Of a stretch of 64,000 nt of DNA, positions 29,214-48,296 are shown piece after piece (position 1 is the first letter of the stretch; each line of letters starts with the position of its first letter). The translations under genes were made by a program, and so were the position numbers. The notes beneath the pieces were generated by a model. It had not been told where the DNA came from. It searched no databases and was given only the letters and a program-made list of their open reading frames with translations. Source of the stretch: Calditrichales bacterium (lineage in GTDB: Bacteria > Calditrichota > Calditrichia > Calditrichales > J004); NCBI GenBank assembly GCA_965267575.1, contig OZ254086.1:2112001-2176000 (forward strand), in the 5' to 3' direction.

Positions 29214-31556
29214 ATGTTACAAAATAATTCTTCCAATAATTCGGCAAACGCTCCCGTAGGAATAGATTTCAAACGCTATTACCGCCTCTTCAAGCGTAAG
29301 AAGTGGCTCATCCTTGGGATTTTTAGCGTTGTTTTTGTTTTCGTTTTTCTGGCGGCATTAAGGCTGGGGCCTGAGAAGATTTACACAACAAGTGCTCTTC
29401 TTCAGTTTGACGACAGGCGCGCTTTGTCCGGTATAGAAGACCGCGGACGGGCCGAAAACGACAGCAAGCTTGGCATGTTAATGTCGCGCAGTTTTTTGAA
29501 AAATGTCGTGGATAAGCTGAACTATACGTTTCAGATAAGTGGTTCCATTCGCCGCGCCAATGCTGTAGATTCGATTTACCTGGCTGGAGACCACAAGCTC
29601 GGCAAATACCGCATTGAAAAAGACAATGGCCAGTTTAAGCTGCTTTATACCAGTCCGGATAAAACGGTTGAAGAAAAAGTTATTTTTGAGGGTGACCTTG
29701 CACCCGATTACCGTCTTGCGATAAACGGATTTGAGCTTTACACACGAAAGAACTTTTGGGACACTCACCAGAAGCTGCAATTTTATCTGCTTAACGAATT
29801 GCAGGCCGTTGAAAAATTGCGTTCATCCCTTAATCCCAATTTTAAGAACCGCAGCCGTACACTGCTCGGCATTGAAATTTCCGGCACGGACCCGGATTTT
29901 ATAACGCTTACCCTTAACACGTTAATTGATGAGTTTGTTAAGCAAAATATCGATTTTAAAAAATATCACACACGTGAAGTATTGAATATACTTTCAGAGC
30001 AGCTGAAGACAGCAAAAGCAGACCTTGATTCGGCCGTTGAAGATCTGAAAGTCTTTCGTGAAAAGAACCCCTGGGTTGGACTTGACCCCGGGGCAACCGG
30101 CGCCATTACCGGCATTTCTTCGCTGGAAAGCGATAAGCTGAACGTGCAGGACAATACCGCCGAACTGGAAATGCTGCTGAACAGGGTTTCAAATGTTTCC
30201 GGTGAAGCCAAGTACCCGATTCTCAGTGAAATTCTGTCATTCCTTGGTGCTTCCGGTGTCGCGACTGTTCCTGCATTGAGCTCCGAACTTGCCAGTTTAA
30301 GAGCAGAGCGAGATCGACTTCAGGCCTCTTATTCTGCTGACCACCCCGTTATTCAGGAGAATGAACGCAAGCTTGGTTCGCTGGAAGAAAAGATCCTCTT
30401 AACGACCAGGAATCTGATAAACAGCTACAATGACAGAATCGCAAAGATCAACTCGCAAATACGGGAAGAATCTTACAAGATACGAAGCCTCCCGACGAAG
30501 GAGCTGCAATTTGCGGAATTACAGCGCAGGCGAAATGTTGCCGACCAGATCTATTCGTCATTGCTGGTGCGCCACAATCAGGCAAAGGTAGCAGACGCGG
30601 TCGAAGTGGGCGATGTCATTGTTCTTGATGAGGCAGTTAAGCCGCTTGGCGGCGGAAGCTTTGCGCAGCTTCTTAAATATCTGATCCTTGCTTTTGGTCT
30701 TGGCATTGCGCTCAGTTTCGGCTCGGTTATCGCGTTTGATTTTCTGGATAAAACCGTCCGGACATCAGATGAGTTAGAAAAGGCTGTCCCGATTCGTGTT
30801 GTTGCTAAAATACCAGTTGTAGGTTCAGCAAGGGATATCCCGGAAGAGGTGTTTGACAGCACAAAGCGTATTGACCCCAAGCTGGTGACTGCGGACTATT
30901 CGCCTACCCCTATGGGTGAAGCGTATCGCAGCCTGCGGACGCAGCTTTTATTTAGCAACGAACACAAGCGCAACCGCTCGTTGTTTATAACATCGCTGAA
31001 CCCGGGCGAGGGAAAGTCGCTCAATGCCGGCAACCTGGCAATCACCTTTGCGCAGCAGAAAATTCCAACATTGCTTGTTGATGCTGATCTGAGAAGGGGC
31101 GTGCTGCACAGCTCTTTTGCCTGCGACAAAAAGCCCGGTCTTTCGGATTTCCTTTACTCCAATGCGGACATCAATGAGGAGAATATCCGAAAGGTAATTC
31201 AGCAAACACACATCCCGAATCTGCACCTGCTGAGCAGCGGTATGCCGGTGCCAAACCCTTCGGAAATTCTTGGTTCGCAGCGTGGAAAAGATGTAATACG
31301 CTTTTTGAACGAGCGTTTTGGTTTTGTGATTGTTGATACACCGCCGATCATGGTTACGGCAGATTCTGTTGTGATCTCACAATATGTGGATCAGGGTCTG
31401 TTTGTTATACGTGCCGGAAAAACCAACGTGGACGAGGTAAAGCAGAAAATTGCAGAATACCAGGACTTCCACAAAAAACTGTTTGGCCTGGTGCTGAATT
31501 GTGCCGAGCTGGATGTTAAGGAAGAAAACTATAAGTATTCCTACTACAACTATTAA
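29214..31556 (+). CDS. wzc: Polysaccharide co-polymerase / BY-kinase (Wzc)
   Basis: Two TMs flanking a coiled periplasmic domain, EAYRSLRT, GEGKS, VDADLRR, VDTPP, C-terminal Tyr cluster YKYSYYNY. Confidence 0.93.
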   Translation: MLQNNSSNNSANAPVGIDFKRYYRLFKRKKWLILGIFSVVFVFVFLAALRLGPEKIYTTSALLQFDDRRALSGIEDRGRAENDSKLGMLMSRSFLKNVVDKLNYTFQISGSIRRANAVDSIYLAGDHKLGKYRIEKDNGQFKLLYTSPDKTVEEKVIFEGDLAPDYRLAINGFELYTRKNFWDTHQKLQFYLLNELQAVEKLRSSLNPNFKNRSRTLLGIEISGTDPDFITLTLNTLIDEFVKQNIDFKKYHTREVLNILSEQLKTAKADLDSAVEDLKVFREKNPWVGLDPGATGAITGISSLESDKLNVQDNTAELEMLLNRVSNVSGEAKYPILSEILSFLGASGVATVPALSSELASLRAERDRLQASYSADHPVIQENERKLGSLEEKILLTTRNLINSYNDRIAKINSQIREESYKIRSLPTKELQFAELQRRRNVADQIYSSLLVRHNQAKVADAVEVGDVIVLDEAVKPLGGGSFAQLLKYLILAFGLGIALSFGSVIAFDFLDKTVRTSDELEKAVPIRVVAKIPVVGSARDIPEEVFDSTKRIDPKLVTADYSPTPMGEAYRSLRTQLLFSNEHKRNRSLFITSLNPGEGKSLNAGNLAITFAQQKIPTLLVDADLRRGVLHSSFACDKKPGLSDFLYSNADINEENIRKVIQQTHIPNLHLLSSGMPVPNPSEILGSQRGKDVIRFLNERFGFVIVDTPPIMVTADSVVISQYVDQGLFVIRAGKTNVDEVKQKIAEYQDFHKKLFGLVLNCAELDVKEENYKYSYYNY

Positions 31557-31633: not shown

Positions 31634-33178
31634 ATGAGTCTTCTGCTTCATCATTTTCTGGAAAACAGTGCCGACAAAAATCCGGATAAGCCCGCTTTGT
31701 GGCATAAGGAAAACTGGTACGATTACCGTTCTCTGGAAGAGGGCGCAAACAAAATAGCCGGTTTTTTGATCAGTAAGAATTTGCGCAAAGGTGACCGGGT
31801 GGCGATGATCTGGGAAAACAGTTTTCACTATGTCGCAATTTACTACGGCATCCTGAAGGCCGGCGGGGTTGTGGTCGCCCTCAATACAGAGACCACCCCA
31901 GACAGCATCGCCTATTTGCTGGATAATTCCGGCGCGCGCTTTTTCTTTGTCCAGAAAACATTCGCCCGTTTTGTGAAGCCGATTAAAGACAAAATAAATG
32001 CCCTGGACGGTGTTATCTGGGATGAGTTGCCCAAAGGCTGGCCATCAGAAAAGAGCTACTTCTTATGGACTGATATCCAGCAAAAATATGCCGCTGAAAG
32101 ACCCCAGATCAGGATCATCAACATTGATCTGGCAGCAATCGTTTATACATCGGGCAGTACCGGGAAGCCAAAGGGTGTTACACTTTCGCACCTGAATATC
32201 TGCACCAATACCCAGTCTATTGTCTCTTATCTGAAGCTTTCCGCCAAAGACCGTATCATGGTGATTTTGCCGTTTTATTACATTTACGGATTGTCTCTGC
32301 TTAATACACATATTGCCGTTGGCGGAAGTCTGGTAATAGACAATCGCTTTGCTTTTCCAAATGTCGTACTGGACACGATGGAAAAGCAGCAGGTTACGGG
32401 CTTTGCAGGCGTGCCCAGCACTTTTGCTATTTTGCTTAATAAATCCAACGTCAGAAATCGTTCTTTTCAAAAATTGCGCTATTTAACGCAAGCCGGCGGA
32501 GCCATGGCGCCTGTGTTGCAAACCGACGTCGCTGAAGTGTTCAGCCCGGCAAAGCTAATCGTTATGTACGGCGCGACAGAAGCATCGGCAAGGCTGACCT
32601 ACCTTGATCCGGAATTTCATTCTCAAAAACTGGGCTCTATCGGCAAGGCGATCCCTAATGTGGAAGTATTTGTTGCGGATCATAACGGACAACCACTGCC
32701 GGCGGGTGAGCAGGGTGAGATTGTTGCCCGGGGAGCCAACATGATGCAAGGCTACTGGCGCGATCCGCAGGAAACGGCCAAAGTTGTGCGCCACGGCCTC
32801 TATTTTACCGGCGATTTGGGCAAAACCGATGAAGAGGGTTTTCTCTATGTTGTCGGGCGCAGCAAGGATATGATTAAGGTTGGCGCAAACCGCATCAGCG
32901 CTAAGGAGATAGAAGAAGCCATTCTTGAAAACGAAAATGTTGTCGAAGTCGCCGTTATTGGCGTGCCGGATGATATCCTCGGTGAAGCGATGGACGCTTG
33001 CGTGGTATTGAAGGAACGGCATAACGGCTGGGAAAAAGATCTTCTGGAATTTACCCGCAAAAAACTGCCGCCCTTCAAAGTGCCTTCCTATTTTTCGCCG
33101 CTTGACGCCCTGCCCAAAAATACTTCCGGCAAAGTCATGAAGAATAAAATAAGGAAGCTCAAGGGACTGGAAGTCTGA
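31634..33178 (+). CDS. AMP-dependent acyl-CoA/acyl-ACP ligase (adenylate-forming), similar to exosortase-A-cluster ligases
   Basis: YTSGSTGKPKG, MYGATEA, TGDLG, GRSKDMIK, PKNTSGK. Confidence 0.9.
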   Translation: MSLLLHHFLENSADKNPDKPALWHKENWYDYRSLEEGANKIAGFLISKNLRKGDRVAMIWENSFHYVAIYYGILKAGGVVVALNTETTPDSIAYLLDNSGARFFFVQKTFARFVKPIKDKINALDGVIWDELPKGWPSEKSYFLWTDIQQKYAAERPQIRIINIDLAAIVYTSGSTGKPKGVTLSHLNICTNTQSIVSYLKLSAKDRIMVILPFYYIYGLSLLNTHIAVGGSLVIDNRFAFPNVVLDTMEKQQVTGFAGVPSTFAILLNKSNVRNRSFQKLRYLTQAGGAMAPVLQTDVAEVFSPAKLIVMYGATEASARLTYLDPEFHSQKLGSIGKAIPNVEVFVADHNGQPLPAGEQGEIVARGANMMQGYWRDPQETAKVVRHGLYFTGDLGKTDEEGFLYVVGRSKDMIKVGANRISAKEIEEAILENENVVEVAVIGVPDDILGEAMDACVVLKERHNGWEKDLLEFTRKKLPPFKVPSYFSPLDALPKNTSGKVMKNKIRKLKGLEV

Positions 33179-33180
33179 TC

Positions 33181-34209
33181 ATGAAGATTGAAACGATTCA
33201 AACGGATTTGACAAACTGGGACGCCTACGTTGAGAACCATCCGCAGGGTACGATTTATCACAAAAGCGGGTGGAAAAATATCATTGAGTCTCATTTTGGT
33301 AAAAAGACGCACTATCTGCTGGCGCGCGATGATCATGCCGTTCGTGGCGTTTTGCCGCTGGTAGAATTCAGCTCGCCTTTGTTCGGAAGATTTATCATTT
33401 CCGTGCCTTATGTCAACTACGGAGGTCTCCTTTTTTCGGATGATCAGGCGCGCGCGGCGCTGTTGAAAGAAGCCGATCGCATACGTGACGATCGCAAAGC
33501 GGAATCAGTTGAATTGCGCCACGTGGGAGACGATTTGAACGGTCTTCCGGTAAAAACGCAAAAGGTGACTTTTTTTCTTGATTTACCCGGGGATAGCGAG
33601 GAGTTATTGGCTGCTTTCAAAGCGAAATTGCGCAGCCAGATTCGCCGCCCCATGAAAGAAGGGATGTATGCAAAAAGCGGCGGTCAGGAGTTGCTTGATG
33701 ATTATTATGCCGTTTTTTCAATCAATATGCGCGACTTGGGTACGCCGGTTTATGACCGGCGTTTTTTTAAGGCCATTTTTGCGCAAACGCCTGAAAATTG
33801 TCACATTGTAACCGTTTATACGCCCGATCATAAATGTGTCGGCGGGGCTTTCCTGATCGGGTACCGGGGGCGCATGGAAATACCGTGGGCTTCCACGCTG
33901 AAGGAATACAATCGCTACAGCCCCAACATGTTGCTTTACTGGGAAGTGCTGAAGCTGGCCATAGAAAAAGGGTATAAGCAATTTGACTTTGGGCGTTGCA
34001 GCAAGGAGGGCGGAACGTACCGGTTTAAAAGGCAGTGGGGCGCCACCGAGATTCCGCTTCACTGGTATTATCTCTTGCCGGATGGGGCTGATATGCCGCA
34101 AATAAATCCGGACAATCCAAAATACAGGCTTGCCATCTCTGCCTGGCAAAAGCTGCCGGTGGCTGTGGCCAACGCCATCGGACCGCATATCGTAAAACAC
34201 CTGCCCTAG
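33181..34209 (+). CDS. FemAB-like GNAT protein (XrtA/PEP-CTERM-cluster type)
   Basis: SVPYVNYGG, KLRSQIRR, NMRDLGTP, NMLLYW, FDFGR, FKRQWGA, NPDNPKY. Confidence 0.88.
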   Translation: MKIETIQTDLTNWDAYVENHPQGTIYHKSGWKNIIESHFGKKTHYLLARDDHAVRGVLPLVEFSSPLFGRFIISVPYVNYGGLLFSDDQARAALLKEADRIRDDRKAESVELRHVGDDLNGLPVKTQKVTFFLDLPGDSEELLAAFKAKLRSQIRRPMKEGMYAKSGGQELLDDYYAVFSINMRDLGTPVYDRRFFKAIFAQTPENCHIVTVYTPDHKCVGGAFLIGYRGRMEIPWASTLKEYNRYSPNMLLYWEVLKLAIEKGYKQFDFGRCSKEGGTYRFKRQWGATEIPLHWYYLLPDGADMPQINPDNPKYRLAISAWQKLPVAVANAIGPHIVKHLP

Positions 34210-34217
34210 GACCCCAA

Positions 34218-35366
34218 TTGCTGACACTTTTCATCCTGCTCGCTGCATTTATCATTTACATCTATATCGGTTATCCGATTGTTATGATGGTTCTCGGAAC
34301 CTTGTTCAAGCGACCGGCGAAAGATACGCCACCCGATGACCTGCCACGCGTTGCTTTTATTATTTCCGCCTTTAACGAAGAATCCGTTATAGGAGAGAAA
34401 CTCGATAATACAAAGCGGCTTAAGTACCCTTCTGACAAGCTTGATATTTTTGTCATATCCGATGCTTCCGATGACAATACGGACGAAATTGTTAACAAAT
34501 ATGACCATGTTTTTCTGAAGCGCATGACCGAGCGGCGCGGAAAGACCTACGGTATTAACGAAGTCGTCCCTCAGCTCGATCATGATGTTGTCGTGTTTTC
34601 CGACGCAAACGCCATTTACGAAGAAAACGCACTGATGGAGCTGGTGAAGTTTTTTGGCGATCCCAAAGTGGGATATGTGGTAGGATATGCCCGCTATTAT
34701 GATGAAGAGCGCAGCCAGGCCGGCGAACAGGAAAATGCCTACTGGAATTTTGAAGTGAAACTTAAAGAGTATGAGAGCCGCCTGGGATCGGTGGTTGGCG
34801 GAGATGGTGCCATCTATGCCATCCGGCGCAGGCTTTTCCGGCATCTTGAAGAGGATGATATAAACGATTTTGTCAATCCCCTGCATATTATTTTACAGGG
34901 CTATCGCGGTGTTTTTAATCCCGATGCCGTGTGTTACGAACACACCGCGGAAAATTTTGAAAAAGAGCTTAAACGCAAGCGTCGCATCGTTAACCGCAGC
35001 TGGCGCGGGCTTATGAAGAATGCGGCCGTGCTGAATCCTTTTAAAACCGGGCTTCATGCCTGGCAAGTTTTTTCGCATAAATTTTTGCGCTGGCTGGGCG
35101 GGTTTTTTCTTATCGCCTTCCTGGCGGTGAATTTTTTGGTTTTGGAACACGGCGATCTTCCGCGCTGGGTTTTAGCGGCGCAACTGGCCTTTTATAGTTG
35201 CGGTATAATAGGCGCTATTGGCATTAAAGCAGGAAAAAATATGCCGCCGCCGTTTTCTATCTGCTATTATTTCGTTGCCGTAAATGTCGTATCGCTGTTG
35301 GGTATTTGGGATAACTACAACGGGAAAAAATATACTACCTGGCAAACAATCAGGGAAGAAAGCTAA
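34218..35366 (+). CDS. Glycosyltransferase family 2 (membrane-bound)
   Basis: SAFNEE, DASDDNT, FSDANA, GDGAIYAIRR, SHKFLRW. Confidence 0.9.
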   Translation: MLTLFILLAAFIIYIYIGYPIVMMVLGTLFKRPAKDTPPDDLPRVAFIISAFNEESVIGEKLDNTKRLKYPSDKLDIFVISDASDDNTDEIVNKYDHVFLKRMTERRGKTYGINEVVPQLDHDVVVFSDANAIYEENALMELVKFFGDPKVGYVVGYARYYDEERSQAGEQENAYWNFEVKLKEYESRLGSVVGGDGAIYAIRRRLFRHLEEDDINDFVNPLHIILQGYRGVFNPDAVCYEHTAENFEKELKRKRRIVNRSWRGLMKNAAVLNPFKTGLHAWQVFSHKFLRWLGGFFLIAFLAVNFLVLEHGDLPRWVLAAQLAFYSCGIIGAIGIKAGKNMPPPFSICYYFVAVNVVSLLGIWDNYNGKKYTTWQTIREES

Positions 35367-35374
35367 AGGAGATC

Positions 35375-36451
35375 GTGCCGCAAATGGGCTATGTGGTTAA
35401 ACAAGCAGACTTAAAAAAAGAGCGACATATCATGGTGGGTATTCTGCAGAATAACCGCCAGGTTGATGATTTTGATTACAATAAGCGGTTTGAGTGGATC
35501 TATGAAAACAATCCCTATGGTAAGGCACGCGCCTGGATCATCTGGGATGACAAGAACGACCTGCCGGTGGGCTTTACAGGCGTTTTCCCAAGGCCTGTTT
35601 ATGTCAACGGCCAGCGTGTGATGTGCTGGAATTGTGGTGATTTTTCGATCGAGAAAAAATACCGTACGCTGGGTATAGCCATAAAGCTGCGCAAAGCCGC
35701 CAAAGAAGCGGTGGACAGCGGCGAAATACCTTTTTTGTATGCCCACCCCAATGAAAGAATGGAAGTGATTCACCTGAAGGTGGGGCATAAGAAGATCGCT
35801 CAAATGCAGCGCTTTGCCCTGCCAATCCGGGCTACGCGGCTTATTCATTCTTATGTTAAGAATAATGCCCTCACCTGGTTGCTGTCCAAGCCTGCCAATT
35901 TTTTGTTATCGCTTAAATATCGTTTCAGTACTTTTTTGGGCATAAGCGGTGTCATACATGATGAGGTTAAGGTCGGCCAGGATCACGATCAGCTTGCAGA
36001 AAGAATGTATGAGAGCTTTAAGGTTGTGGGCGAGCGAAGCACGACATATCTGAACTGGAAATTTGGTTCTAATCCAAACCGCCGTTACAGCCAGTTCGAC
36101 CTGTATTATAAGGGAATGCTGGTAGGCTGTGTGTTCTACGTTCAAAGGGACGATGCTGTTTACGTACTCGATGTGTTAGTTGATGATTTTGATCGTTTTG
36201 CCGGTGAGCTTTTCCGCAATTTTATTAACAGTATCCGCAAGGCATATAACCGTTCCATCGTATCAGTTTCCTTTATTTTACAGGAATTCAATCCGTTTAT
36301 ACCGGTACTAAAAAAACTCGGTTTTCGTTACCGTGATGATGCCACTTCCGGCGTGATCAGCTATGCGAACGAAGAAATCAATCCGCAAACCGCAACCGCT
36401 GTTTTAGATGGTAAATCATGGTTTATGACGGTTGGCGACAGAGATGCTTAA
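35375..36451 (+). CDS. GNAT-family acyltransferase
   Basis: F.W.Y..NP.G, GDFSI...YRTLG, PNE, RS..YLNWKF..NP, C-terminal GDRD. Confidence 0.75.
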   Translation: MPQMGYVVKQADLKKERHIMVGILQNNRQVDDFDYNKRFEWIYENNPYGKARAWIIWDDKNDLPVGFTGVFPRPVYVNGQRVMCWNCGDFSIEKKYRTLGIAIKLRKAAKEAVDSGEIPFLYAHPNERMEVIHLKVGHKKIAQMQRFALPIRATRLIHSYVKNNALTWLLSKPANFLLSLKYRFSTFLGISGVIHDEVKVGQDHDQLAERMYESFKVVGERSTTYLNWKFGSNPNRRYSQFDLYYKGMLVGCVFYVQRDDAVYVLDVLVDDFDRFAGELFRNFINSIRKAYNRSIVSVSFILQEFNPFIPVLKKLGFRYRDDATSGVISYANEEINPQTATAVLDGKSWFMTVGDRDA

Positions 36452-36462
36452 CAGGAGAGAAC

Positions 36463-36696
36463 ATGAAAGACAAAATAGTTGAGTTTTTATACGACGAAAA
36501 TCTGAAAGATGAATTTGAAAACCTGGATCATGATGATTCACTGTTGGAATTAGGTATCATTGATTCAGTTAAAATGATGGATTTGATCGAATTTCTCGAG
36601 AAGACCTATGGCATCAACGTGGATGATGACGATCTCTATCCGGAAAATTTCGATTCCATTAACGCCATAGCAGAATTTGTGGAGTCCAAAAAGTAA
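36463..36696 (+). CDS. Stand-alone acyl carrier protein
   Basis: 77 aa acidic protein with LLELGIIDSV phosphopantetheine Ser motif and PENFDSI; AGGAG RBS before ATG 36463. Confidence 0.9.
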   Translation: MKDKIVEFLYDENLKDEFENLDHDDSLLELGIIDSVKMMDLIEFLEKTYGINVDDDDLYPENFDSINAIAEFVESKK

Positions 36697-36698
36697 TA

Positions 36699-37919
36699 AT
36701 GCCCCGAATAGAAATGCCCTGGGCCGCCTGGTATGGTGACAGGAAATTGTTGCTGGATTTGCCGGATGACTGGCAGATCGATGAATACGCTCTGGATTCT
36801 GATAAGCAGGTAAATGACGCCACACTGGACAAAGCGGTTAGCGGCCTGGCAGATGTGCAGGCAAAAAAGAGAGCATCGAACGCTGTCATTGTTGTTGATG
36901 ATTTGACGCGTCCGGTAAAATTGGAAAGGCTGATGCCGCGCATTCTCTCACTGTTGAACCAATCGGGCATAGCCGACAAGGATATACGTATTCTGGTTGG
37001 TTTGGGCTCACACCAGGGCCTGAGCCGCGAAAATATGCAGAAAAAGCTGGGCAAAGAAGCAGTAGATAGAGTCACCTGCCTGAATCACGATCCTTCTGAT
37101 ACTGTTGAAGTGGGCGTTGAATGGGGCAAGACATCGGTAAAGTTGAACCAGGTTTACGTGGAGTCTGAGCTTAAGATTGTTATTAGCGGGCTGACGCCGC
37201 ACAGTTTCGCCGGCTTTAGCGGCGGTGCCAAAATGCTCTATCCCGGTCTGGCGGACATGGAGACAATTGCTAAGACCCACAAGTCCGTATTGATGGGATT
37301 TATGGGTAAACTGGGAGATGTTGCGCAAAACAAATTTCGAAATATCATTGAAGAGTTTGTAGAAAAAGTGGGTCTTGATTTTTTCTTTGGTGTCGTAATC
37401 AACGGGGACCGATCGATGCGTTCGGTGCATGCGGGCCATTATGTTGACGCCCATCGGGCTGCTGCCGAAGAAGCGGCTGAATATTGCCGCATACAGCTTA
37501 AGAATCCGCAGTATGATATTGTTATATCTTCTGCCTGGCCAAAGGACAGCGAGCTGCTGCAAGCGGAAAACGGGTTTATCCCGATTAAGTCCGCCGGTGC
37601 GGACTTGCTAAAACCGGGTGGCATATTTGTTTTATTGTCAGCTTGTTCCGAGGGCATGGGGCATCACGGTCTGTTCGGGCCGGGTGGGCTACTTTTTCGC
37701 AAAGCTCTGCCCTTGCGCTTTTTAAAAGACCGGCGATTGTTTTCCTTTTGTGAGAATGTCTCCAAAGAAGATTTCCACCACCTTTATCATGAGTCTTATG
37801 ACTTTTTTACAGATGTACAGGATTTGATTGACAGAGCTAAGTCATTGGCAGGCAAAAAGCCAAAAGTCGCCGTATTCCCATACGGCAGTATGCAGATAGC
37901 AGGTGCTTATGTCGGCTAG
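36699..37919 (+). CDS. LarA-family (lactate racemase domain) nickel-pincer 2-hydroxy-acid racemase/epimerase homologue
   Basis: DDLTRP, GLGSH, PHSFAGFSGGAKMLYPG, TH, CSEGMG motifs align by eye with LarA. Confidence 0.82.
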   Translation: MPRIEMPWAAWYGDRKLLLDLPDDWQIDEYALDSDKQVNDATLDKAVSGLADVQAKKRASNAVIVVDDLTRPVKLERLMPRILSLLNQSGIADKDIRILVGLGSHQGLSRENMQKKLGKEAVDRVTCLNHDPSDTVEVGVEWGKTSVKLNQVYVESELKIVISGLTPHSFAGFSGGAKMLYPGLADMETIAKTHKSVLMGFMGKLGDVAQNKFRNIIEEFVEKVGLDFFFGVVINGDRSMRSVHAGHYVDAHRAAAEEAAEYCRIQLKNPQYDIVISSAWPKDSELLQAENGFIPIKSAGADLLKPGGIFVLLSACSEGMGHHGLFGPGGLLFRKALPLRFLKDRRLFSFCENVSKEDFHHLYHESYDFFTDVQDLIDRAKSLAGKKPKVAVFPYGSMQIAGAYVG

Positions 37920-40574: not shown

Positions 40575-41707
40575 AGAAAATACGTATTGCCCATATTATC
40601 AACTTTCTCTCTCCGGCCGGCAAAGAAGTTGGTATAGTGAAACTGTTAAACGGCATGGATGAAGAGCGCTTCGAAGGCTATCTGATTGTAATTGATAAAG
40701 TTATTGATCCGCTGTTTCTTGATCAGAAAAAAACAAAGCTTTTAAGTTTGAACAAAAAGCCGGGCAATGATGTCGGTCTTCCATTCAGGCTTGCATCTAT
40801 TTTGCGTAAGGAAAAAATAGATATTGTACATACACATGCCTGGGGAACCCTTGTGGAAGGTATTCTGGGAGCTAAAATGGCCCGGGTGCCTGTCATTATT
40901 CATGGCGAACATGGCACATTTCACACAGATGCCAAAAGAAAGCTCATTCAGCGTTTGTTTTTCAATTTGGCTGATTATCTCCTCTCTGTGTCGCAGGTAC
41001 TTGCAGATAGGCTGCACGAAGTGATCGGACCACGTAACAAGAGATTTACTTCTATTCTGAACGGTGTGGATACCGAGCGTTTTTATCCTAACGAACAGAA
41101 AAGAGTACATCAAAGAAAAGAACTGGGGGTTTCGCCGGATACCGTGTTGATCGGTACCGTTGGCCGGACCGTACCCGTAAAAAATCATCAGCTTCTTATT
41201 AAAGCGGCGGCCTTGCTGCACGAAACGCATACAAATTTTAAGATCTGCATTGTAGGCGGTATTGACGCTGAGAAAAAAGAGCGGTTGGAGTGTGAGCGCC
41301 TGGCGGATGAACTGGATGTGGCTTCTTTTGTAGATTTTGTCGGTGTTCAGGATGATATACCCGCTTTTCTCAATGCCTTCGATATCTTTGTGCTGCCCTC
41401 ATTGAGTGAGGGCTGCTCCAACGTAATACAGGAGGCTATGGCGTGCGGTAAACCAGTTGTCGCTTCTAATGTCGGGGGAAACTCAGAATTAGTTATGCAC
41501 CAGAAATCCGGATTGCTTTTCCCCAGCAATGATGAAAAAGCCTTGTATAAAGCGTTAACCGTTCTCGTGGATGATGATCGTTTGCGCGAGAGTTTTGGCC
41601 GGAATGCGCTGGAACAGATCCGCAGCAGTTTTTCCCTCACACAAATGATAAAATCTTATCAGAATTTTTATTTAACCAGTCTGGAAGTTAAGCCCAATGA
41701 GCAGTAA
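40571..41707 (+). CDS. Glycosyltransferase family 4
   Basis: IHGEHG, NGVDTERF, PSLSEGCSNVIQEAMACG (EX7E). Confidence 0.92.
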   Translation: MKKIRIAHIINFLSPAGKEVGIVKLLNGMDEERFEGYLIVIDKVIDPLFLDQKKTKLLSLNKKPGNDVGLPFRLASILRKEKIDIVHTHAWGTLVEGILGAKMARVPVIIHGEHGTFHTDAKRKLIQRLFFNLADYLLSVSQVLADRLHEVIGPRNKRFTSILNGVDTERFYPNEQKRVHQRKELGVSPDTVLIGTVGRTVPVKNHQLLIKAAALLHETHTNFKICIVGGIDAEKKERLECERLADELDVASFVDFVGVQDDIPAFLNAFDIFVLPSLSEGCSNVIQEAMACGKPVVASNVGGNSELVMHQKSGLLFPSNDEKALYKALTVLVDDDRLRESFGRNALEQIRSSFSLTQMIKSYQNFYLTSLEVKPNEQ

Positions 41708-43217
41708 TGATTCCCGCGAAGTTTCGTTAACCCAGCAGGTACGCTCGGGGGTTATCTGGACTATTCTTAGAACCCTTAGCAGCCAGGGTGCGCGTTTTAT
41801 TGGCTCCATAGTTCTTGCCCGTATTCTGTTTCCTGAAGACTTTGGTATTATGGGCATTGTTTTGCTTGTGACGCGTTTTGCTGAAAAGCTTGGCAATTTT
41901 GGGTTCACACAGATTCTTATTCAGCGCAAACTGATTGATGACGCGCATATCAGAACAACGTTTACGCTAAACCTGATAATCTCCGGCTTAACAACGGCGG
42001 CCATTTTTACTTTTGCGCCAGCCATTGGCGGTTTTGTTACCAGTGCTCAGGATAGTGGTTTTTTAACCAAAGTTATTGATATTCTGCGCGTCATCTCCGT
42101 TATCTTTTTAATTCACAGTTTCTACGCCGTCCCGAACTCTCTTCTTAAACGGGAGATGAAATTTAAGCAGGAATCTTTAGTCGGGATGGCCGGCGGAATA
42201 GTCAAGTTTCTCTCTCCTATTGGCTTTGCATTGGCGGGGTGGGGTGTTTGGAGCTTAGTCGTTGGGCATCTGCTGGGTGAATTGATTCAGGTAGTAATGT
42301 TTTACATAGTCACCCGGTGGACACCAAATCTGGGGATACGCAAGGAAGCTTTAAAGAATGTATTTTCTTTTGGGGTCTGGCTGAATATGTATTCCTACGT
42401 GCAGTACTTCTATAAGAATATCGATTACTTTTTTATAAGTAAATTTCTTGGATACACCGCGTTAGGCTTCTATGAACGCAGCTATAACCTGATGAACGCG
42501 CCAAGAAAACGGGTAAAGGATATGATCGGTGCCGTCTTGTTCTCCGCTTATTCCCGCATACAGGATGAAGATGAACGATTGAACTACGCCATGCGCAGGG
42601 TAATGTCCGCTGTTACTTTGGTTACTTTTCCGGTTATGATCTGGCTCATTTATGTATCGCCAAGCATTGTCCCGTTTTTATATGGCGATAAATGGTTTGA
42701 GAGTGTAACACCTTTACAGATTATGTCGGTTGCCGGTTTGCTGGAATCTGTTACAATGGTTTTTTATCCCGCATTTCTTGCAAAAGGACTCGCCAAAAAC
42801 CGGACCAAGGTGCATGCAATTGTTCTTGTCTTTCTTATTGCTGGTGTTTACTGGGCTGCCCGCTACAGCATAAATCATGTAGCATGGGCGGTAACGGCTT
42901 CTTCAGCCATAGGGCTTTTTATTAACGCCAATGAATACAGGCGTTTTTCCAGCTGGACGTGGAAAGACTTGTGGTTAGGTGTTAAACCGGCTTTGATTAC
43001 GGGTACAATAATGGCGGGTATGATGGGCATTGCCAACTACGGATTGCTTTTCTATCTCAAGGAAGACTCACCCATTATCTTATTCGTCCTCAGTGTTTTT
43101 GCTGCCCTATTGTTTTTCGCAACAATGGCAATTTTTAAATTTCCAGAATACAATGACGCCAAGGATATGGTGTTTCGGAGAAAAAAGAAGTTAAAGAAAA
43201 AAGTAAAGGCAGAATAA
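41697..43217 (+). CDS. Wzx flippase (WzxC-like)
   Basis: LARILFPEDFG, GWGVWSLV, LGFYERSY, YGDKW; many TMs. Confidence 0.9.
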   Translation: MSSNDSREVSLTQQVRSGVIWTILRTLSSQGARFIGSIVLARILFPEDFGIMGIVLLVTRFAEKLGNFGFTQILIQRKLIDDAHIRTTFTLNLIISGLTTAAIFTFAPAIGGFVTSAQDSGFLTKVIDILRVISVIFLIHSFYAVPNSLLKREMKFKQESLVGMAGGIVKFLSPIGFALAGWGVWSLVVGHLLGELIQVVMFYIVTRWTPNLGIRKEALKNVFSFGVWLNMYSYVQYFYKNIDYFFISKFLGYTALGFYERSYNLMNAPRKRVKDMIGAVLFSAYSRIQDEDERLNYAMRRVMSAVTLVTFPVMIWLIYVSPSIVPFLYGDKWFESVTPLQIMSVAGLLESVTMVFYPAFLAKGLAKNRTKVHAIVLVFLIAGVYWAARYSINHVAWAVTASSAIGLFINANEYRRFSSWTWKDLWLGVKPALITGTIMAGMMGIANYGLLFYLKEDSPIILFVLSVFAALLFFATMAIFKFPEYNDAKDMVFRRKKKLKKKVKAE

Positions 43218-44239
43218 TGCGCTCCGTTTTCAAAAAAGGACTTTACAAGGGAATAGACGCTGTAGGCCTTAACCGAAGTTATTTGCAGCGGCAACATCAC
43301 ATCGTTTTGATTCTGACTTATCATTCGGTCATACCTTATTCTGAAAAGTATAAACGTTTTGATTATCGAAATTGCGTGACCGATGAAAACTTTGATAAAC
43401 AGATACGCTTTTTGAAGCAGAATTACAACGTCGTCACAATGGATGAAGCCGTAGAAGCCATCCGAGAAAAAAACATCAATGAACGTCTTGCGGTTATAAC
43501 TTTTGACGATGGTTTCAGGAATAACTATTTGTATGCGCTTCCCGTTCTCAAAAAAAATAATGTGAGCGCCGTTTTTTATCTTGCGACCTCGTTTATTGGC
43601 AAAAAAGAAACACTTTGGACAGAGACGGTTAATCACCTTCTAACGGCTACCGGGGAACGCAGCATTGAACTTGAGATGAATGGCGCTGCCAGACGCTTCA
43701 ATCTGACCGGCCCGGCGCAAAAAGAAAAAGCATCAATCGAAATAAGAAACTATCTCAAGTTTAGCAGTGCTGAAGTGGAGGAAGACATACTTAATCAGTT
43801 GCAGGAGAAAATAAAAGATGTTTCCGATCCTGTCAGCTTCGATCCTGATCGTTATGCTTTTATGAGTTGGAGTGATGTGAATGAAATGGAAAAGTCCGGT
43901 ATGGAAATCGGTTCGCATACACATTCACACTTTACACTTAATATGCTGGATAAAAAGTCATCCTTTAAAGATATTGGCGACTCCAAAAAACAAATTGAAG
44001 AACACACGGATCATACCTGCAAACACTTTAGCTATCCAAACGGAGAAAAGGGAAATTTCCTGCCGCACCATTTTGAGCAGCTTAAAGAAACAGGCTTCGA
44101 TAGTGCCGTAACACAAATCAAAGGTCTTAACAGTTACAGCGATAACCTGTTTGCTCTAAAGAGAATCAATATCTCGGCAAAAATGGGCATGGAGGTTTTT
44201 AAATCTTATTGCAGCGGCACGTATGCTCTTATCCACTAG
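43217..44239 (+). CDS. Polysaccharide deacetylase (NodB/CE4)
   Basis: LTYHSV, ITFDDG, GSHTHSH, FSYPNG. Confidence 0.9.
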   Translation: MRSVFKKGLYKGIDAVGLNRSYLQRQHHIVLILTYHSVIPYSEKYKRFDYRNCVTDENFDKQIRFLKQNYNVVTMDEAVEAIREKNINERLAVITFDDGFRNNYLYALPVLKKNNVSAVFYLATSFIGKKETLWTETVNHLLTATGERSIELEMNGAARRFNLTGPAQKEKASIEIRNYLKFSSAEVEEDILNQLQEKIKDVSDPVSFDPDRYAFMSWSDVNEMEKSGMEIGSHTHSHFTLNMLDKKSSFKDIGDSKKQIEEHTDHTCKHFSYPNGEKGNFLPHHFEQLKETGFDSAVTQIKGLNSYSDNLFALKRINISAKMGMEVFKSYCSGTYALIH

Positions 44240-45014
44240 CAGATTACTTCCGGACAAAACAGGTTTTCGGCAAGGGCTGCTAAAAAGTGCCGGAATAAGT
44301 AGAATACATATCGTCGGATGTGCCCGCTCCGGCACGACCATGTTGCACTATGCCATGGCGGCATTTGAAGATACAATCCTGTATGATAAAGAAATCTCTC
44401 CATGGACTTACCCGCAAACAATAGAGTGCCTGGGTTTGGCTGGAAAATATTTTTTAAAAAAGGGAAACCATAAACTTGTCAGCAAACGCAATGTGAGCTG
44501 GTGGAAAAAGGAACACCTGGAAAAGCTGATTGAATTTAAACAAAGATATGATCTCATATTAATCCATATCGTCCGTGATCCCCGCGACGTTCTAACCAGC
44601 CGTCATAAGTTAAGCAAAAACAAATTCTATTTAACTCCCGAAAAATGGCATGATAGTATTTCCGGCGGCTTAATGCTGGACGAAACGTTTGAAACGGATC
44701 CGCATTACCTGACGCTGAAGTATGAAGACGTTGTCTGTACGCCGCAAAAAGTGTTGCAAACTTTTAATCAAAAATTTGGCTTAACGCTCAACCCCATGGT
44801 TGAAGACTGGTCGCATTTGGCTAGCAATCTTTCGCGTCTAAAAGTAAAAGGGAAGATGGAAGCATATATGCACAAACTGCGTGATTTTGACCCTTCTACG
44901 ATAAGAAAATGGAAAAACGACATTAGTAAGAAAGAATACCTCGCCCGGCTTATGCAATCAGAGTACGGAAACTATATTGAAAATTTCCTAAATCGGTATA
45001 ATTACCCGGCATAA
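44223..45014 (+). CDS. PAPS-dependent sulfotransferase family protein
   Basis: IVGCARSGTTML (5'-PSB loop), IVRDPRDVLTS (3'-PB), LKYEDV. Confidence 0.82.
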   Translation: MLLSTSRLLPDKTGFRQGLLKSAGISRIHIVGCARSGTTMLHYAMAAFEDTILYDKEISPWTYPQTIECLGLAGKYFLKKGNHKLVSKRNVSWWKKEHLEKLIEFKQRYDLILIHIVRDPRDVLTSRHKLSKNKFYLTPEKWHDSISGGLMLDETFETDPHYLTLKYEDVVCTPQKVLQTFNQKFGLTLNPMVEDWSHLASNLSRLKVKGKMEAYMHKLRDFDPSTIRKWKNDISKKEYLARLMQSEYGNYIENFLNRYNYPA

Positions 45015-45018
45015 TATC

Positions 45019-46035
45019 ATGGAATCCTCTCTTAACGGTTTTGATATAGACAAAGTACTTGAAGCGATGGCGGCCGAGAGAAGCATCAGAATCATTGAAT
45101 ATGCAATTCTTAATAGGGAAGAAAGGCCGTTTTCGGATGTTTTTAGGGTCCGTTTGAATATAGATAAGGACAGTAACGCTTTCGTTTTTATTAAGTATCT
45201 AAAAAGCCTGGCGCGGAATTCTAATAAAGAGGCTTTGAAAAAAAACTTTGAAACAACACAGTTCTGGTATAATAAGTTCAGGGACTCAAAACAGTTCAGG
45301 ACCATAGAGCCGCTGTATATCAATTATGAAAATTACGCGATTGTAACGCGGGAGAGTCCGGGATACGATCTTAACCGCTATATTGAACATTACGGCCAGT
45401 TTTTCCCACCCCTGCAAACCCAAAAAAAGATATATAAAAACCTTTATAATGTCGGCCAGTGGTTGTCCTATTTCCAATCCATACCGATTAACGGACGGGA
45501 ACAACCGCTTTCTTTGGAAGACATTCTCGATTATATCAATCTGCGCTTGGAGCGCATCGTCGAAAACTCAAAAATTGCTTTTAATGATAACCTCGCTGAA
45601 CGTATCAACGATTATATCAGAGCGCTTTGGACAGAGGTAAATGAGTCGGACAAAAAGCAATCTTATCTCCATTCCGATTTATCCCTTTCAAACATTCTTA
45701 TTCACCGCGATACAGTAACTGTTTTGGATTTTGGAAAAATTGAAACGGGATCTGTTTACAAGGATCTCACCCGGCTCTACCATCAGTTGATGTTGCTGGG
45801 ACACAAGCCAACCTTTTTGAAAGGCTTTCTGTCGAACCTCAAGGAAAACCTGCTGGCCGGATACGGCAATGTAAATGTCAGCCATAATCCACTTTTCAGG
45901 ATCTATTTGCTTACGCATATCATAAATCATTTTGGCAAAACGGCGCGCTTCTGGGAGCATAGTTTTACGGAGAATATTTATAATCGCTGGATCGTAAAAC
46001 GGACCCTCAAAGAGATTAAGGAATTCATCAGCTAA
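45019..46035 (+). CDS. APH/choline-kinase-like phosphotransferase
   Basis: VFIK, HSDLSLSNIL (Brenner motif), VLDFG. Confidence 0.75.
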   Translation: MESSLNGFDIDKVLEAMAAERSIRIIEYAILNREERPFSDVFRVRLNIDKDSNAFVFIKYLKSLARNSNKEALKKNFETTQFWYNKFRDSKQFRTIEPLYINYENYAIVTRESPGYDLNRYIEHYGQFFPPLQTQKKIYKNLYNVGQWLSYFQSIPINGREQPLSLEDILDYINLRLERIVENSKIAFNDNLAERINDYIRALWTEVNESDKKQSYLHSDLSLSNILIHRDTVTVLDFGKIETGSVYKDLTRLYHQLMLLGHKPTFLKGFLSNLKENLLAGYGNVNVSHNPLFRIYLLTHIINHFGKTARFWEHSFTENIYNRWIVKRTLKEIKEFIS

Positions 46036-48296
46036 TGGCTCTGAAAACGAAGCTCAAAAAGATAATGCGAATGCCGCCCGGAGAGATTGCCTACCGGGTG
46101 AATGAGCAGTTGCGCATTCGCCGTGAAAAGAAAAATGCGGAAGAAGAACTCAGACTAGTGACATCCGCGGATTTCAATTTTTTTGAAAATAACGAACACT
46201 TTCGTTTGTTCCGATCCGGCCAAATCGATCAATTGCTTAAACAGTCTGATTTTTTCAGGCCTATTGCGCCGCTTCTTTCGTCGGAAGATGCCCGGACTTT
46301 TGAAAAGCAATTTCCCCGGTCGCTTAGAAAAAGCCTTGAACGCGCCGATCAGCTTTTGGAAAACAGATTCATCTTTCTCGGGGTTTCGTTTACCCTGCCC
46401 AAGCCCATTCCGTGGCAGAGCGATCCGCTTAGTTTGACCCCCTTCCCGGAAGGCTTTTACCGCAATATTGATATTTTTACCAATAAGAATCCCGGCGATA
46501 TAAAGCATGTCTGGGAAGTAAATCGACTTCAATTTCTTATTGAACTGGCTAAAGCTTATTTCATCAGCGGAGAAGAAAAATATAAAAAGCATTTTGATGA
46601 TCTGCTTCTCGACTGGGCGCGACAGAACCCATATAAACGCGGTGTAGCCTGGGCCAGCGCTCTTGAAGTAGGTGTACGTGCTGTCGCGCTGATCTGGTCG
46701 CTTCACTTTTACCGTTCCTGCCAAAACCCGGATAAGGAAGTACTAAAGACGCTTGTTTTTCAAATATACCTGGCACTGCGTTATCTCGATGAGAATTTAT
46801 CGATCTATTTCAGTCCCTATAATCATTTAATTGGTGAAGCTGCCGGGCTCTTTCTCGGCGGGTACGTTTTCCCCGGGTTTAAAAAAAGCGACATTTATGC
46901 TCAAAAGGCCTGGTCTATTTTGGAGGATCAGGCGGAAAAACAGTTTCATCCAGATGGAGGTTGCGTAGAGCAGGCCACGTTCTATCATCATTTTACGCTG
47001 GGCTTTTATCTGCAATCTGTTATTACCCGCCGCCTTAGCGGAGACGCTACATCGGAAAATGTGTTAAGGCGTATCAGTCAGGCCTTGCGTTTTGCAGGAT
47101 ATATGACAAAGCCCGACGGGCTACTCCCCTATATGGGTGACATTGATAATGCCCGTTCCATTTACTTTAGTGATCCTACCACCTGGGATTTTAAGGCTTT
47201 TCAGGCTTTGGGCGCATGGCTGTTTAAAGACACGCACATGAAGCAGATTGCCGGGTCCGGCGAAATGGAAGAACTGTTCTGGATGCTTGGCGCAAAAGGA
47301 ATTTCTGAATACGAGAAAATCGATACAAAGGTACCTGAAAAGACATCGATAAATTTAGAGGAATCGGGTTACGCTATTTTCAGAACTGGTTATGGGCCCG
47401 ATGACCATTACCTTCACATTGACTGCGGGCCGATTGCCCATGGCGTATTTCACGACGAAACCCCTTCCGCAGCACACGGTCATGCTGACGAACTTGCTGT
47501 AGAATTGGCGGTATTTGGTGAATCATTTTTAATAGATCCCGGTTTTGCCAATTACCGTGGTGACTTTGAAAGGCACTGCTATTTCCGCAGCACGGCCGCG
47601 CATAACACGGTTGAAATAAATGGCAAATCACAAGCTCAGCAGGGCGGCATTCTTGTGTGGAGCAAAGCGCCACGTTTAAAACGCCTGGAGTTTTTTGACG
47701 GGAAAAATATTAATGGTTTCGTTGGTGAGCATTATGGCTATATGACGGAGCCGGGCAGTCCGGTGCACCGGCGTTTTACGGCTGCAATAGATCAAAAGCT
47801 GTTTATTGTCTGGGACCATATTAGGGGTACGGATGCTACCGCGGATGTGAATGTGCATTGGCACTTTAATGACACAATCGCTTTAGAAAAGCAGGACGAA
47901 TTCTGGCAGGCCACAGGCAACAAGGCACGTCTTAAAATGTTCACGCTGACGAACCGGCAAATCACCGCTAAATTATCTAAAGGTGGCGACGCTATAGACG
48001 AAGGCTGGATTTCGCCGCTTTACCGCGATGTAAAGCCTGCGCCTCTGTTGAAACAGGCCTGTATGGCGAAACTGCCAATGGATATATGCACTATACTGCT
48101 GCCGGAAAAAATTGGCGAGGATTTAAAAACAAGCCTGGAAGATAATACCTTTAATGCCAAAATAGACAAAACGGATTACACCATTACGCGCAAGGAAGCG
48201 ACTCTTGAAATCTGGATAAATGGTGTAAAGACAGGGCAGCTAAACAACACATCAGAAAAAGACGATCACAAAAAGTGGTTTATGGAAACGGAGTAA
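46035..48296 (+). CDS. Heparinase II/III-like protein
   Basis: VWEVNRLQF, NHLIGEA, DGGCVEQATFYH, HGHADEL, IDPG, FRSTAAHNTV. Confidence 0.88.
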   Translation: MALKTKLKKIMRMPPGEIAYRVNEQLRIRREKKNAEEELRLVTSADFNFFENNEHFRLFRSGQIDQLLKQSDFFRPIAPLLSSEDARTFEKQFPRSLRKSLERADQLLENRFIFLGVSFTLPKPIPWQSDPLSLTPFPEGFYRNIDIFTNKNPGDIKHVWEVNRLQFLIELAKAYFISGEEKYKKHFDDLLLDWARQNPYKRGVAWASALEVGVRAVALIWSLHFYRSCQNPDKEVLKTLVFQIYLALRYLDENLSIYFSPYNHLIGEAAGLFLGGYVFPGFKKSDIYAQKAWSILEDQAEKQFHPDGGCVEQATFYHHFTLGFYLQSVITRRLSGDATSENVLRRISQALRFAGYMTKPDGLLPYMGDIDNARSIYFSDPTTWDFKAFQALGAWLFKDTHMKQIAGSGEMEELFWMLGAKGISEYEKIDTKVPEKTSINLEESGYAIFRTGYGPDDHYLHIDCGPIAHGVFHDETPSAAHGHADELAVELAVFGESFLIDPGFANYRGDFERHCYFRSTAAHNTVEINGKSQAQQGGILVWSKAPRLKRLEFFDGKNINGFVGEHYGYMTEPGSPVHRRFTAAIDQKLFIVWDHIRGTDATADVNVHWHFNDTIALEKQDEFWQATGNKARLKMFTLTNRQITAKLSKGGDAIDEGWISPLYRDVKPAPLLKQACMAKLPMDICTILLPEKIGEDLKTSLEDNTFNAKIDKTDYTITRKEATLEIWINGVKTGQLNNTSEKDDHKKWFMETE

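Follow-up and report, generated by a model that had tools for sequence, protein, structure and literature searches.

Characterized members of the LarA superfamily, in the portion of the literature covered here, act on free 2-hydroxy acids and require a nickel-pincer cofactor that is produced by LarB, LarE, and LarC. Here, we describe a LarA homolog encoded on a 64,000-nt stretch of contig OZ254086.1 from the Calditrichales bacterium assembly GCA_965267575.1 (hereafter the window, within which locus positions are given), where it is located directly downstream of a free-standing acyl carrier protein (ACP) in an exopolysaccharide locus. A preliminary description of this stretch had held that no nickel-pincer-type enzyme is known in glycan tailoring, and we likewise found no report linking a LarA homolog to a carrier protein or to glycan tailoring in the LarA literature, which was covered in part. 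Specifically, two supplementary files of PMC7583248, in the portions available, contain no mention of acyl carrier, Caldithrix, COG0236, COG0318, COG2244, or COG3307, and the homologs described below may be among the 25 groups of that study under another label.

The LarA homolog is the last gene of a run that also encodes an adenylating ligase, a FemAB-family protein, a GT2 glycosyltransferase, a tandem-GNAT protein, and the ACP (Table 1). We tentatively interpret this run as the acyl-tailoring cassette of a Wzx/Wzy-dependent exopolysaccharide locus, in which the LarA-fold step would take place on an ACP-bound acyl group and without the cofactor made by LarBCE. The LarA-fold gene very probably belongs to the cassette, and we consider it evenly balanced whether its substrate is carrier-bound or a free acid. 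As far as genes are concerned, the step is certainly independent of LarBCE in this genome; chemistry that dispenses with any cofactor is possible, though doubtful. The substrate and the chemistry of the step are what we infer from the observations that follow.

Several described systems share parts of this logic. DltA and DltC function in the D-alanylation of teichoic acids. Like the cassette, they combine an adenylating ligase with a small free-standing carrier protein that has a conserved phosphopantetheine serine, in the decoration of a cell-surface polymer. The cassette differs in that its ligase has Gly at the Asp235 position (see below) and its carrier protein scores only 25.4 bits against the DltC model, which has a cut-off of 68. 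Moreover, Pfam scans of the open reading frames (ORFs) of the window turned up no member of the MBOAT (DltB) family, and transfer, in contrast to Dlt, is presumably carried out by the soluble tandem-GNAT protein.

The gene set for tetronate addition in Vibrio cholerae O1 includes an ACP and a ligase-like enzyme and, to our knowledge, no LarA homolog. The perosamine of the O1 antigen is N-acylated with tetronate (2,4-dihydroxybutyrate) by the wbeK-O genes, and ATP-binding WbeL is needed for tetronate synthesis, according to the available part of PMC3441752. The resemblance, drawn without sequence comparison, is one of logic: there, the glycan locus itself encodes the attachment of a 2-hydroxy acid to the amino group of a surface-polysaccharide sugar, as may be the case here.

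The cassette also resembles the exosortase A (XrtA/PEP-CTERM) set, since its FemAB protein passes TIGR03019 and since the top or nearly top-scoring named matches of the ligase and of the Wzy-like protein belong to it. However, the ligase scores 398.6 bits against TIGR03098 (‘exosortase A-associated ligase’), below the cut-off of 592.35, the Wzy-like protein falls short of TIGR03097 (Table 1), and the NCBIfam-named set has no LarA member. A search of the window genome for exosortase (PF09721) returned 0 matches.

A carrier-protein cassette conserved in glycan loci

We scanned one genome per species, which yielded 80 loci that were searched by tblastn with the proteins of the window locus. These comprised 41 loci with a LarA homolog that is 34–62% identical to that of the window (hereafter the clade) and 39 outgroup loci with a homolog of at most 32% identity. 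The clade is hosted by Calditrichota, KSB1-type metagenome-assembled genomes (MAGs) under various labels, one Acidobacteriota MAG, and one ‘Deltaproteobacteria’ MAG, and one of its members is annotated from the named species Caldithrix abyssi.

An ACP homolog was identified upstream of the clade LarA gene in 37 of the 41 loci, which is every locus that could be assessed, as the other four have only 4 to 1635 nt of upstream DNA. When the unpublished genomes G027 (locus L033) and G038 (L044) are set aside, the count is 35 of 35. The distance between the ACP and LarA genes is 600 nt or less in 29 of the 37 loci, and a Wzx-like gene intervenes in the other eight. Tandem-GNAT homologs are encoded upstream of the ACP in 30 of the 41 clade loci, ligase orthologs are located inside 23, deacetylase homologs inside 20, and at least one of Wzx, Wzy, deacetylase, and FemAB was detected in 32. 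Among the 39 outgroup loci, neither an ACP nor a GNAT homolog was detected in any, and a single locus has a ligase with 28% identity. The recurrence of this arrangement in relatives indicates that it is not due to chance. Both Calditrichota and KSB1-type genomes conserve the trio of GNAT, 77-aa ACP, and LarA-fold protein, in that order, and the association of the LarA clade with ACP, GNAT, ligase, and Wzx/Wzy glycan genes that the preliminary description had put forward therefore holds in two phylum-level groups.

The remainder of the locus varies between these groups. In Calditrichota loci, a GT2 gene is located between FemAB and GNAT. The KSB1-type order is Wzx, Wzy, deacetylase, FemAB-like, GT4, GNAT, ACP, LarA, ligase, and UDP-GlcNAc 2-epimerase. 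The ligase is missing from seven long-flanked Calditrichota loci. All five of the corresponding genomes that were checked encode a 54–58% identical ligase elsewhere, suggesting that the gene was relocated rather than lost; in two of them (G014 and G012) the displaced ligase adjoins a metallo-beta-lactamase-fold gene in a non-glycan context. Joint loss of the ligase and larBCE in one Calditrichota lineage was rejected as an explanation, as all five genomes keep the ligase.

The locus in the window is closed by an 836-aa protein without a Pfam family (Table 1). Weak homologs of this protein, with 21–25% identity, are encoded upstream of the ACP in L029 (6093-8381), L031, L032, L034, L044 (from an unpublished genome), and L045. 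To judge from gene content, these are exactly the KSB1/Acidobacteriota loci in which the double-GNAT gene is missing, which would fit a replacement of one protein by the other.

It could be argued that the LarA-fold enzyme epimerizes a sugar acid or a nucleotide-sugar precursor and that its adjacency to the ACP reflects operon packing. Some LarA homologs are indeed sugar-acid 2-epimerases, such as GntE (PMC7583248, portions available), and the sulfotransferase and heparinase II/III-like genes of the locus make uronic-acid chemistry plausible. However, the ACP is upstream in all assessable loci of two phylum-level groups although the surrounding glycosyltransferases vary, and the scores against such enzymes are low, at 32 bits for the hexonate epimerase model and 36 bits for 4nar. 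We therefore regard this explanation as improbable.

The ligase falls below the cut-off of PRK06187 as well (437.9 bits versus 476), and its best solved relatives are A-domain 2 of LgrA (260 bits), FadD5 (221 bits), and malonyl-CoA synthetase (219 bits). Asp235 of amino-acid-activating domains binds the alpha-amino group. The ligase has Gly at this position of the A4 motif of nonribosomal peptide synthetases, which argues that it activates an acid without an alpha-amino group. The adenylating ligase in the preliminary description thus does not look like an amino-acid activator.

Translation of the ACP more likely starts at the ATG at 36463 than at the ORF start at 36418, because an AGGAGA site is located just before the ATG. 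The ORF from 36418 matches the PP-binding model with 33.6 bits. The phosphopantetheine serine is Ser35 in GIIDSV, and G31, D34, and S35 are invariant across 31 homologs. The best NCBIfam names for the ACP are AmcB, OlsHI ACP, AsbD, and DltC, all of them below cut-off.

The GNAT protein matched no NCBIfam family and has weak Pfam matches, and the database record of the same protein gives 355 aa. Its relatives are annotated as ‘hypothetical’ or ‘GNAT family’ and make up an uncharacterized family of 355–358 aa. An AlphaFold2 (AF2) model (pLDDT 92.5) has a double-GNAT fold for which Foldseek returned Eis-like double-GNAT acetyltransferases (2hv2, 2i00, 3n7z, and 2ozg) and N-myristoyltransferases, with query TM-scores (TMq) of 0.53–0.65. 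The GNAT protein shares two GNAT-like halves with these enzymes, at a Foldseek probability of 1.00, but differs in that identity is 10–15% and no family model is matched; at the sequence level, no solved structure was matched below E = 0.16. The GNAT of the preliminary description is therefore a tandem-GNAT protein. Based on its adjacency to the ACP, the donor of this protein is probably acyl-ACP rather than acyl-CoA. The deacetylase invoked in that description as the source of free amino groups is present, but as one PF01522 ORF among the ORFs scanned from 26.5 to 53 kb and not as several. This deacetylase is a candidate source of the free amine to be acylated.

Active site of the LarA-fold protein

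The LarA homolog adopts the LarA fold over its whole length. Its AF2 model (pLDDT 88.3) aligns with a TMq of 0.81 to both 9eia from I. pallida and 6c1w from L. plantarum, and Mar2 is its best solved match by sequence (127 bits). The LarA_C Pfam model gave only 15.3 bits, below its cut-off of 25, and the NCBIfam equivalogs (LarA, malate racemases, and LarAH10) scored 222, 206, 192, and 169 bits against cut-offs of 500, 462, 460, and 540. The malate-racemase signature site (H/Q-K at W358/T359) falls in a gap of the HMMER alignment of the window protein.

In the HMMER alignment to L. plantarum LarA (6c1w/5huq), DDLTRP supplies D72 and R75, GSH supplies H108, TH supplies H200, and PHSFAGFSGGAK carries H174 and K184. 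Within QAENG, Q295 is kept and K298 is replaced by Asn (Asn291). These assignments, including the replacement of K298, match those made by eye before. Across the clade, D72, R75, H108, H174, K184, and H200 are kept in every assessable row, Q295 in all rows but an incomplete one, and the motif PHxFAGFSGGxK is invariant. The K298 position is occupied by Asn in 39 of 41 assessable clade rows, including that of the window, and by Ser and Thr once each (37 of 39 with Asn when G027 and G038 are excluded), so that the replacement is clade-wide. By comparison, Lys is found there in 35 of 37 assessable outgroup rows. At the V297 position, 39 of 41 clade rows have Glu, which no outgroup row has.

The clade therefore shares with LarA of L. 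plantarum and Mar2 the Lar_N domain, the fold, the His pair, D72, R75, K184, H200, Q295, and GFSGGxK. It differs in the changes of K298 to Asn and of V297 to Glu, in the unmatched LarA_C domain, and in scoring far below the racemase models, as well as in its genetic linkage to an ACP and an acyltransferase within glycan loci and its lack of coupling to larBCE.

The available portion of PMC11623692 describes a structure of I. pallida LarA with D-lactate in which contacts with Arg, Gln295, Lys298, and two histidines keep the carboxylate of the substrate in place. K298 is listed as catalytic by Desguin et al. 2020 (PMC7583248), the available portions of which also state that some uncharacterized LarA groups are without H174 or K298 and that other hydride chemistry is possible in them. 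In the clade, the replacement of K298 by Asn and of V297 by Glu removes a positive charge and adds a negative one, which argues against a free carboxylate as the substrate. An ACP-bound thioester would explain the fixed ACP neighbor, the lost carboxylate-binding lysine, and a dispensable hydride-accepting cofactor. In such a reaction the two histidines could act as an acid-base pair, given that a thioester has an alpha-proton that is potentially acidic enough for epimerization. Thioester epimerases that are free of cofactors are known, such as methylmalonyl-CoA epimerase and alpha-methylacyl-CoA racemase.

Cofactor genes and the proposed route

The window genome is a single contig of 4.73 Mb and is 98.2% complete. 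The LarA homolog is its sole Lar_N gene in a profile search. By the terms of the preliminary description, absence of larBCE would refute its model, and none of the three was found: searches for LarC with TIGR00299 and PF01969 returned 0 matches, those for LarE returned only PP-loop matches of at most 34 bits (cut-off 150), and those for LarB only 38 bits in a 170-aa ORF (cut-off 175). Five relatives that encode true LarB and LarE give the same weak, housekeeping-type matches in addition. Furthermore, LarC, LarE, and LarB of the two nearest relatives had no tblastn match in the window genome at E<1e-3, whereas the flanks of the lar genes of these relatives do match, with 43–69% identity.

Among the 41 clade genomes, LarC was identified in 19 (17 of 39 without the two unpublished genomes) and LarB in 11 (11 of 39), with LarE in the same genomes as LarB. 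All three of LarBCE are encoded in 10 genomes, LarC alone in nine, LarB and LarE without LarC in one, and none of them in 21. As a control, LarB was detected in 30 of 39 genomes with other LarA homologs. We also tabulated 78 genomes of the phylum with a completeness of 80% or more, scoring the clade as present wherever identity was 35% or higher and in two further genomes with partial matches. LarB is present in nine and absent from 17 of the 26 genomes with the clade, and present in 14 and absent from 38 of the 52 genomes without it. These rates (35 and 27%) reveal no coupling between the clade and LarB. Fourteen genomes of the phylum encode LarB but yielded no match to the LarA-type query at E<=1e-20 (the Lar_N model was not searched there); in these, the pincer pathway may serve another protein.

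The distribution of LarB differs among families. In the window's own family, LarB was identified in seven of the eight other genomes, suggesting that its loss from the window genome was recent. In a second family (f3), LarB is absent from all 11 clade-bearing genomes, which are 91–100% complete and include one single-contig genome, and the two LarB-positive genomes are both without the clade. LarC was found in 0 of 5 and LarE in 0 of 6 of the f3 genomes checked. Thus, larBCE is missing not only from the window genome but also from an entire family in which the LarA gene stays under constraint.

Collectively, the absence of larBCE and the lack of coupling to LarB mean that it cannot be taken for granted here that the LarA homolog is a nickel-pincer racemase of a free hydroxy acid. 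This was the model of the preliminary description, in which such a LarA racemase inverts a free 2-hydroxy acid, the ligase loads the product onto the ACP, and GNAT proteins acylate deacetylated amino sugars. Consistent with it, the LarA fold and all residues of the cofactor pocket and the catalytic histidines are kept, 10 of the 41 clade genomes encode LarBCE, the clade member is the sole Lar_N gene in four of them, and many 2-hydroxy acids are racemized by LarA homologs (PMC11770544, portion available). Against it stand the missing larB, larC, and larE genes in the window genome and in f3, the uncoupled distributions across the phylum, and the Asn that replaces Lys298 beside a Glu, which disfavors a free carboxylate. 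On balance, we consider this model quite unlikely.

A pincer-type cofactor might still be used if it were obtained by uptake from neighbors or by a route that is not homologous to LarB, LarE, and LarC. The invariance of K184, H200, R75, and the GFSGGxK loop in lineages without larBCE is in keeping with this possibility, as are nine KSB1-type clade genomes (G025, G027, G028, G030, G033, G034, G038, G040, and G041, of which G027 and G038 are unpublished) that encode full-length LarC (PF01969, approximately 460–480 bits) and neither LarB nor LarE, which hints that the three-gene pathway is not always complete. The LarC-only status was rechecked at the default E-value in five of the nine. However, no substitute carboxylase or sulfur transferase surrounds LarC in the four LarC-only genomes examined (loci L102-L105), where LarC adjoins FabH-like and PAP2_3 genes in three, and a substitute for LarB or LarE beside LarC was accordingly dismissed as a candidate. 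We know of no uptake system for the nickel-pincer cofactor. Cofactor-loaded proteins are, in addition, labile (PMC11796402, portion available). We regard continued use of a pincer-type cofactor from either origin as unlikely.

The recent loss in the window's family also raises the possibility that the LarA gene in the window is a leftover, silent or inactive and kept by its position in the operon after larBCE was lost. In a tree of 38 rows (L038, L044, L045, and L048 were left out as fragments), the window protein is sister to six rows, and its terminal branch is the longest in this seven-row clade (0.68). Against a leftover, the reading frame is intact and coupled to its neighbors, and the gene and all key residues are conserved throughout the whole family that lacks larBCE. 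At columns where the other 36 rows are invariant, the window protein never deviates, and among the 87 columns conserved to 90% or more it deviates at 4, which is within the range of the other rows. We consider a leftover highly improbable, and the relic hypothesis was rejected given that there is no excess of changes at conserved columns.

The interpretation that we tentatively prefer, an acyl-tailoring cassette with a LarA-fold step on an ACP-bound acyl group, involves three steps. First, the ligase would adenylate a carboxylic acid without an alpha-amino group and load it onto the ACP. Second, the LarA-fold enzyme would act on the ACP-bound thioester, most likely by inverting the alpha-carbon, and in this organism would do so without the nickel-pincer cofactor made by LarBCE. 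Third, the tandem-GNAT protein would use this acyl group to acylate an amine in the repeat unit; the amine might be exposed by the PF01522 deacetylase or might be added as part of an aminoacyl group by the FemAB-type protein.

Several points weigh against this interpretation. The invariant K184 (the cofactor tether), H200 (a nickel ligand), and GFSGGxK are hard to explain without a pincer-like cofactor. Contact of the LarA-fold protein with the ACP is seen in no result: prediction of the complex, with both proteins given as alignments, scored 0.27 against a mark of 0.32, which speaks neither for nor against contact, and no ACP-LarA fusion was found among the 120 homologs listed, nor any relative of more than 712 aa, which is weak evidence. 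Five of the six rows that are sister to the window protein come from genomes with LarB and LarC, and the sixth, from an 85%-complete MAG, is near-identical to one of the positives. Of the seven closest relatives in the tree, six encode LarB, LarC, and LarE, and four of these (G002, G004, G005, and G009) have no Lar_N gene besides the clade member, such that the clade may use the nickel-pincer cofactor where it is available. Nonetheless, larBCE without any larA is found in about 15% of surveyed genomes (PMC11796402), and the larBCE genes of the nearest relatives thus need not serve the clade enzyme. Finally, larBCE may be carried on an unassembled plasmid of the strain, and related genomes are non-independent samples whose counts stand here without a statistical test.

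Composition of the locus and implications

The polysaccharide locus, as delimited by ORFs and profile searches, is on the + strand and extends from 26.5 to approximately 50.5 kb of the window. The same searches place the six genes of the run where the preliminary description had them (Table 1). They are tightly packed: the FemAB-type gene starts 2 nt past the ligase stop, the ACP stop codon (TAA, 36694-36696) is separated from the LarA start (ATG, 36699) by a gap of 2 nt, and the Wzy_C ORF from 37903 overlaps the LarA gene by 17 nt, which agrees with the spacing and the overlap noted earlier. Downstream, the order is Wzy-like, two GT4, Wzx, PF01522 deacetylase, sulfotransferase, APH-like kinase, heparinase II/III-like, and two GT4. 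The STAS-domain gene at the head of the locus keeps the same position across Calditrichota loci.

Table 1. Positions of the genes of the polysaccharide locus and of other features in the window, with supporting matches.
Feature	Position	Strand	Evidence
Locus head: priming sugar-phosphate transferase, STAS-domain, Poly_export, Wzc-like tyrosine autokinase	26516..31556	+	TIGR03025 331.2 bits > 295.55; PF01740, PF02563; TIGR01007 163.6 bits
STAS-domain (anti-sigma-antagonist-like) protein, 273 aa	27706-28527	+	Between priming transferase and export protein
Adenylate-forming ligase, acyl-CoA-synthetase type, 514 aa	31634..33178	+	PF00501 284 bits; PF13193 68 bits
FemAB-family protein, XrtA/PEP-CTERM-associated type, 342 aa	33181..34209	+	TIGR03019 396.8 bits > cut-off 260.35; PF13480 68 bits; PF02388 40 bits
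GT2 glycosyltransferase, 382 aa	34218..35366	+	PF00535 75.9 bits; PF13641 69 bits
Tandem-GNAT acyltransferase-like protein, 355 aa	35384..36451 (ATG; ORF from GTG 35375)	+	PF00583 22.4 bits, weak
Free-standing carrier protein (ACP/PCP-like), 77 aa	36463..36696	+	PF00550 34.3 bits
LarA-superfamily protein, 406 aa, distinct ‘E-N’ clade	36699..37919	+	Lar_N 142.1 bits vs cut-off 23.3
Wzy/O-antigen-ligase-like membrane protein, 434 aa	37903..39207	+	PF04932 73.1 bits; TIGR03097 149 bits < 188.1
Wzx-type (MOP) flippase	41697..43217	+	PF13440 267.5 bits; NF007773 214 bits
Polysaccharide deacetylase	43217..44239	+	PF01522 79 bits
Sulfotransferase, APH-like kinase, heparinase II/III-like protein	44223-48296	+	
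836-aa protein	50697-53207	+	No Pfam family
Two rRNA operons in tandem, complete	8054-18207	+	16S-23S-5S twice, identical bit scores
Two tRNA genes in first rRNA spacer	9667-9832		
Second sugar-modification block	18300-22461	-	NAD epimerase/dehydratase, SIS (GmhA-like), PcrB-family, WbqC-like proteins
Second FemAB-like/Acetyltransf_6 protein	21355-22461	-	
Overlapping ORFs, 177 and 230 aa	62501-63543	+	First and second halves of UbiA-type prenyltransferase models

The block of sulfotransferase, kinase, and heparinase-like genes suggests that the polymer may be sulfated and glycosaminoglycan-like, and most Calditrichota loci have syntenic homologs of both the kinase and the heparinase-like protein. 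Outside of the locus, the window encodes two complete rRNA operons in tandem, with tRNA genes in the first spacer and none reported in the second, followed by a second sugar-modification block that includes a second FemAB-like protein. Toward the end of the window, the two overlapping ORFs that match the halves of UbiA-type prenyltransferase models look like a split or frameshifted gene.

If the interpretation of the run as an acyl-tailoring cassette is extended to the whole clade, it would describe a branch of LarA that was freed from the LarBCE cofactor and recruited to epimerize or isomerize an acyl thioester on a dedicated ACP by means of two histidines, a scenario that we regard as rather speculative. 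As part of it, the old cofactor pocket (K184, H200, and GFSGGxK) would accommodate another ligand, for example a plain metal ion, a simpler nucleotide, or the phosphopantetheine arm, and the exopolysaccharide of Calditrichota and KSB1 bacteria would come to bear an unusual acyl modification.

The clade is of interest in that its ‘cofactor’ pocket is fully conserved although it persists in closed genomes without larBCE, always beside a dedicated carrier protein and in glycan loci. Two conclusions are possible: the cofactor is supplied from a source not yet recognized, or carrier-protein chemistry can proceed on the LarA scaffold without it. In both cases knowledge of this enzyme family would be widened. 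For the organisms themselves, the result would hint at a hitherto undescribed acyl modification of polysaccharides in little-studied phyla from sediments.

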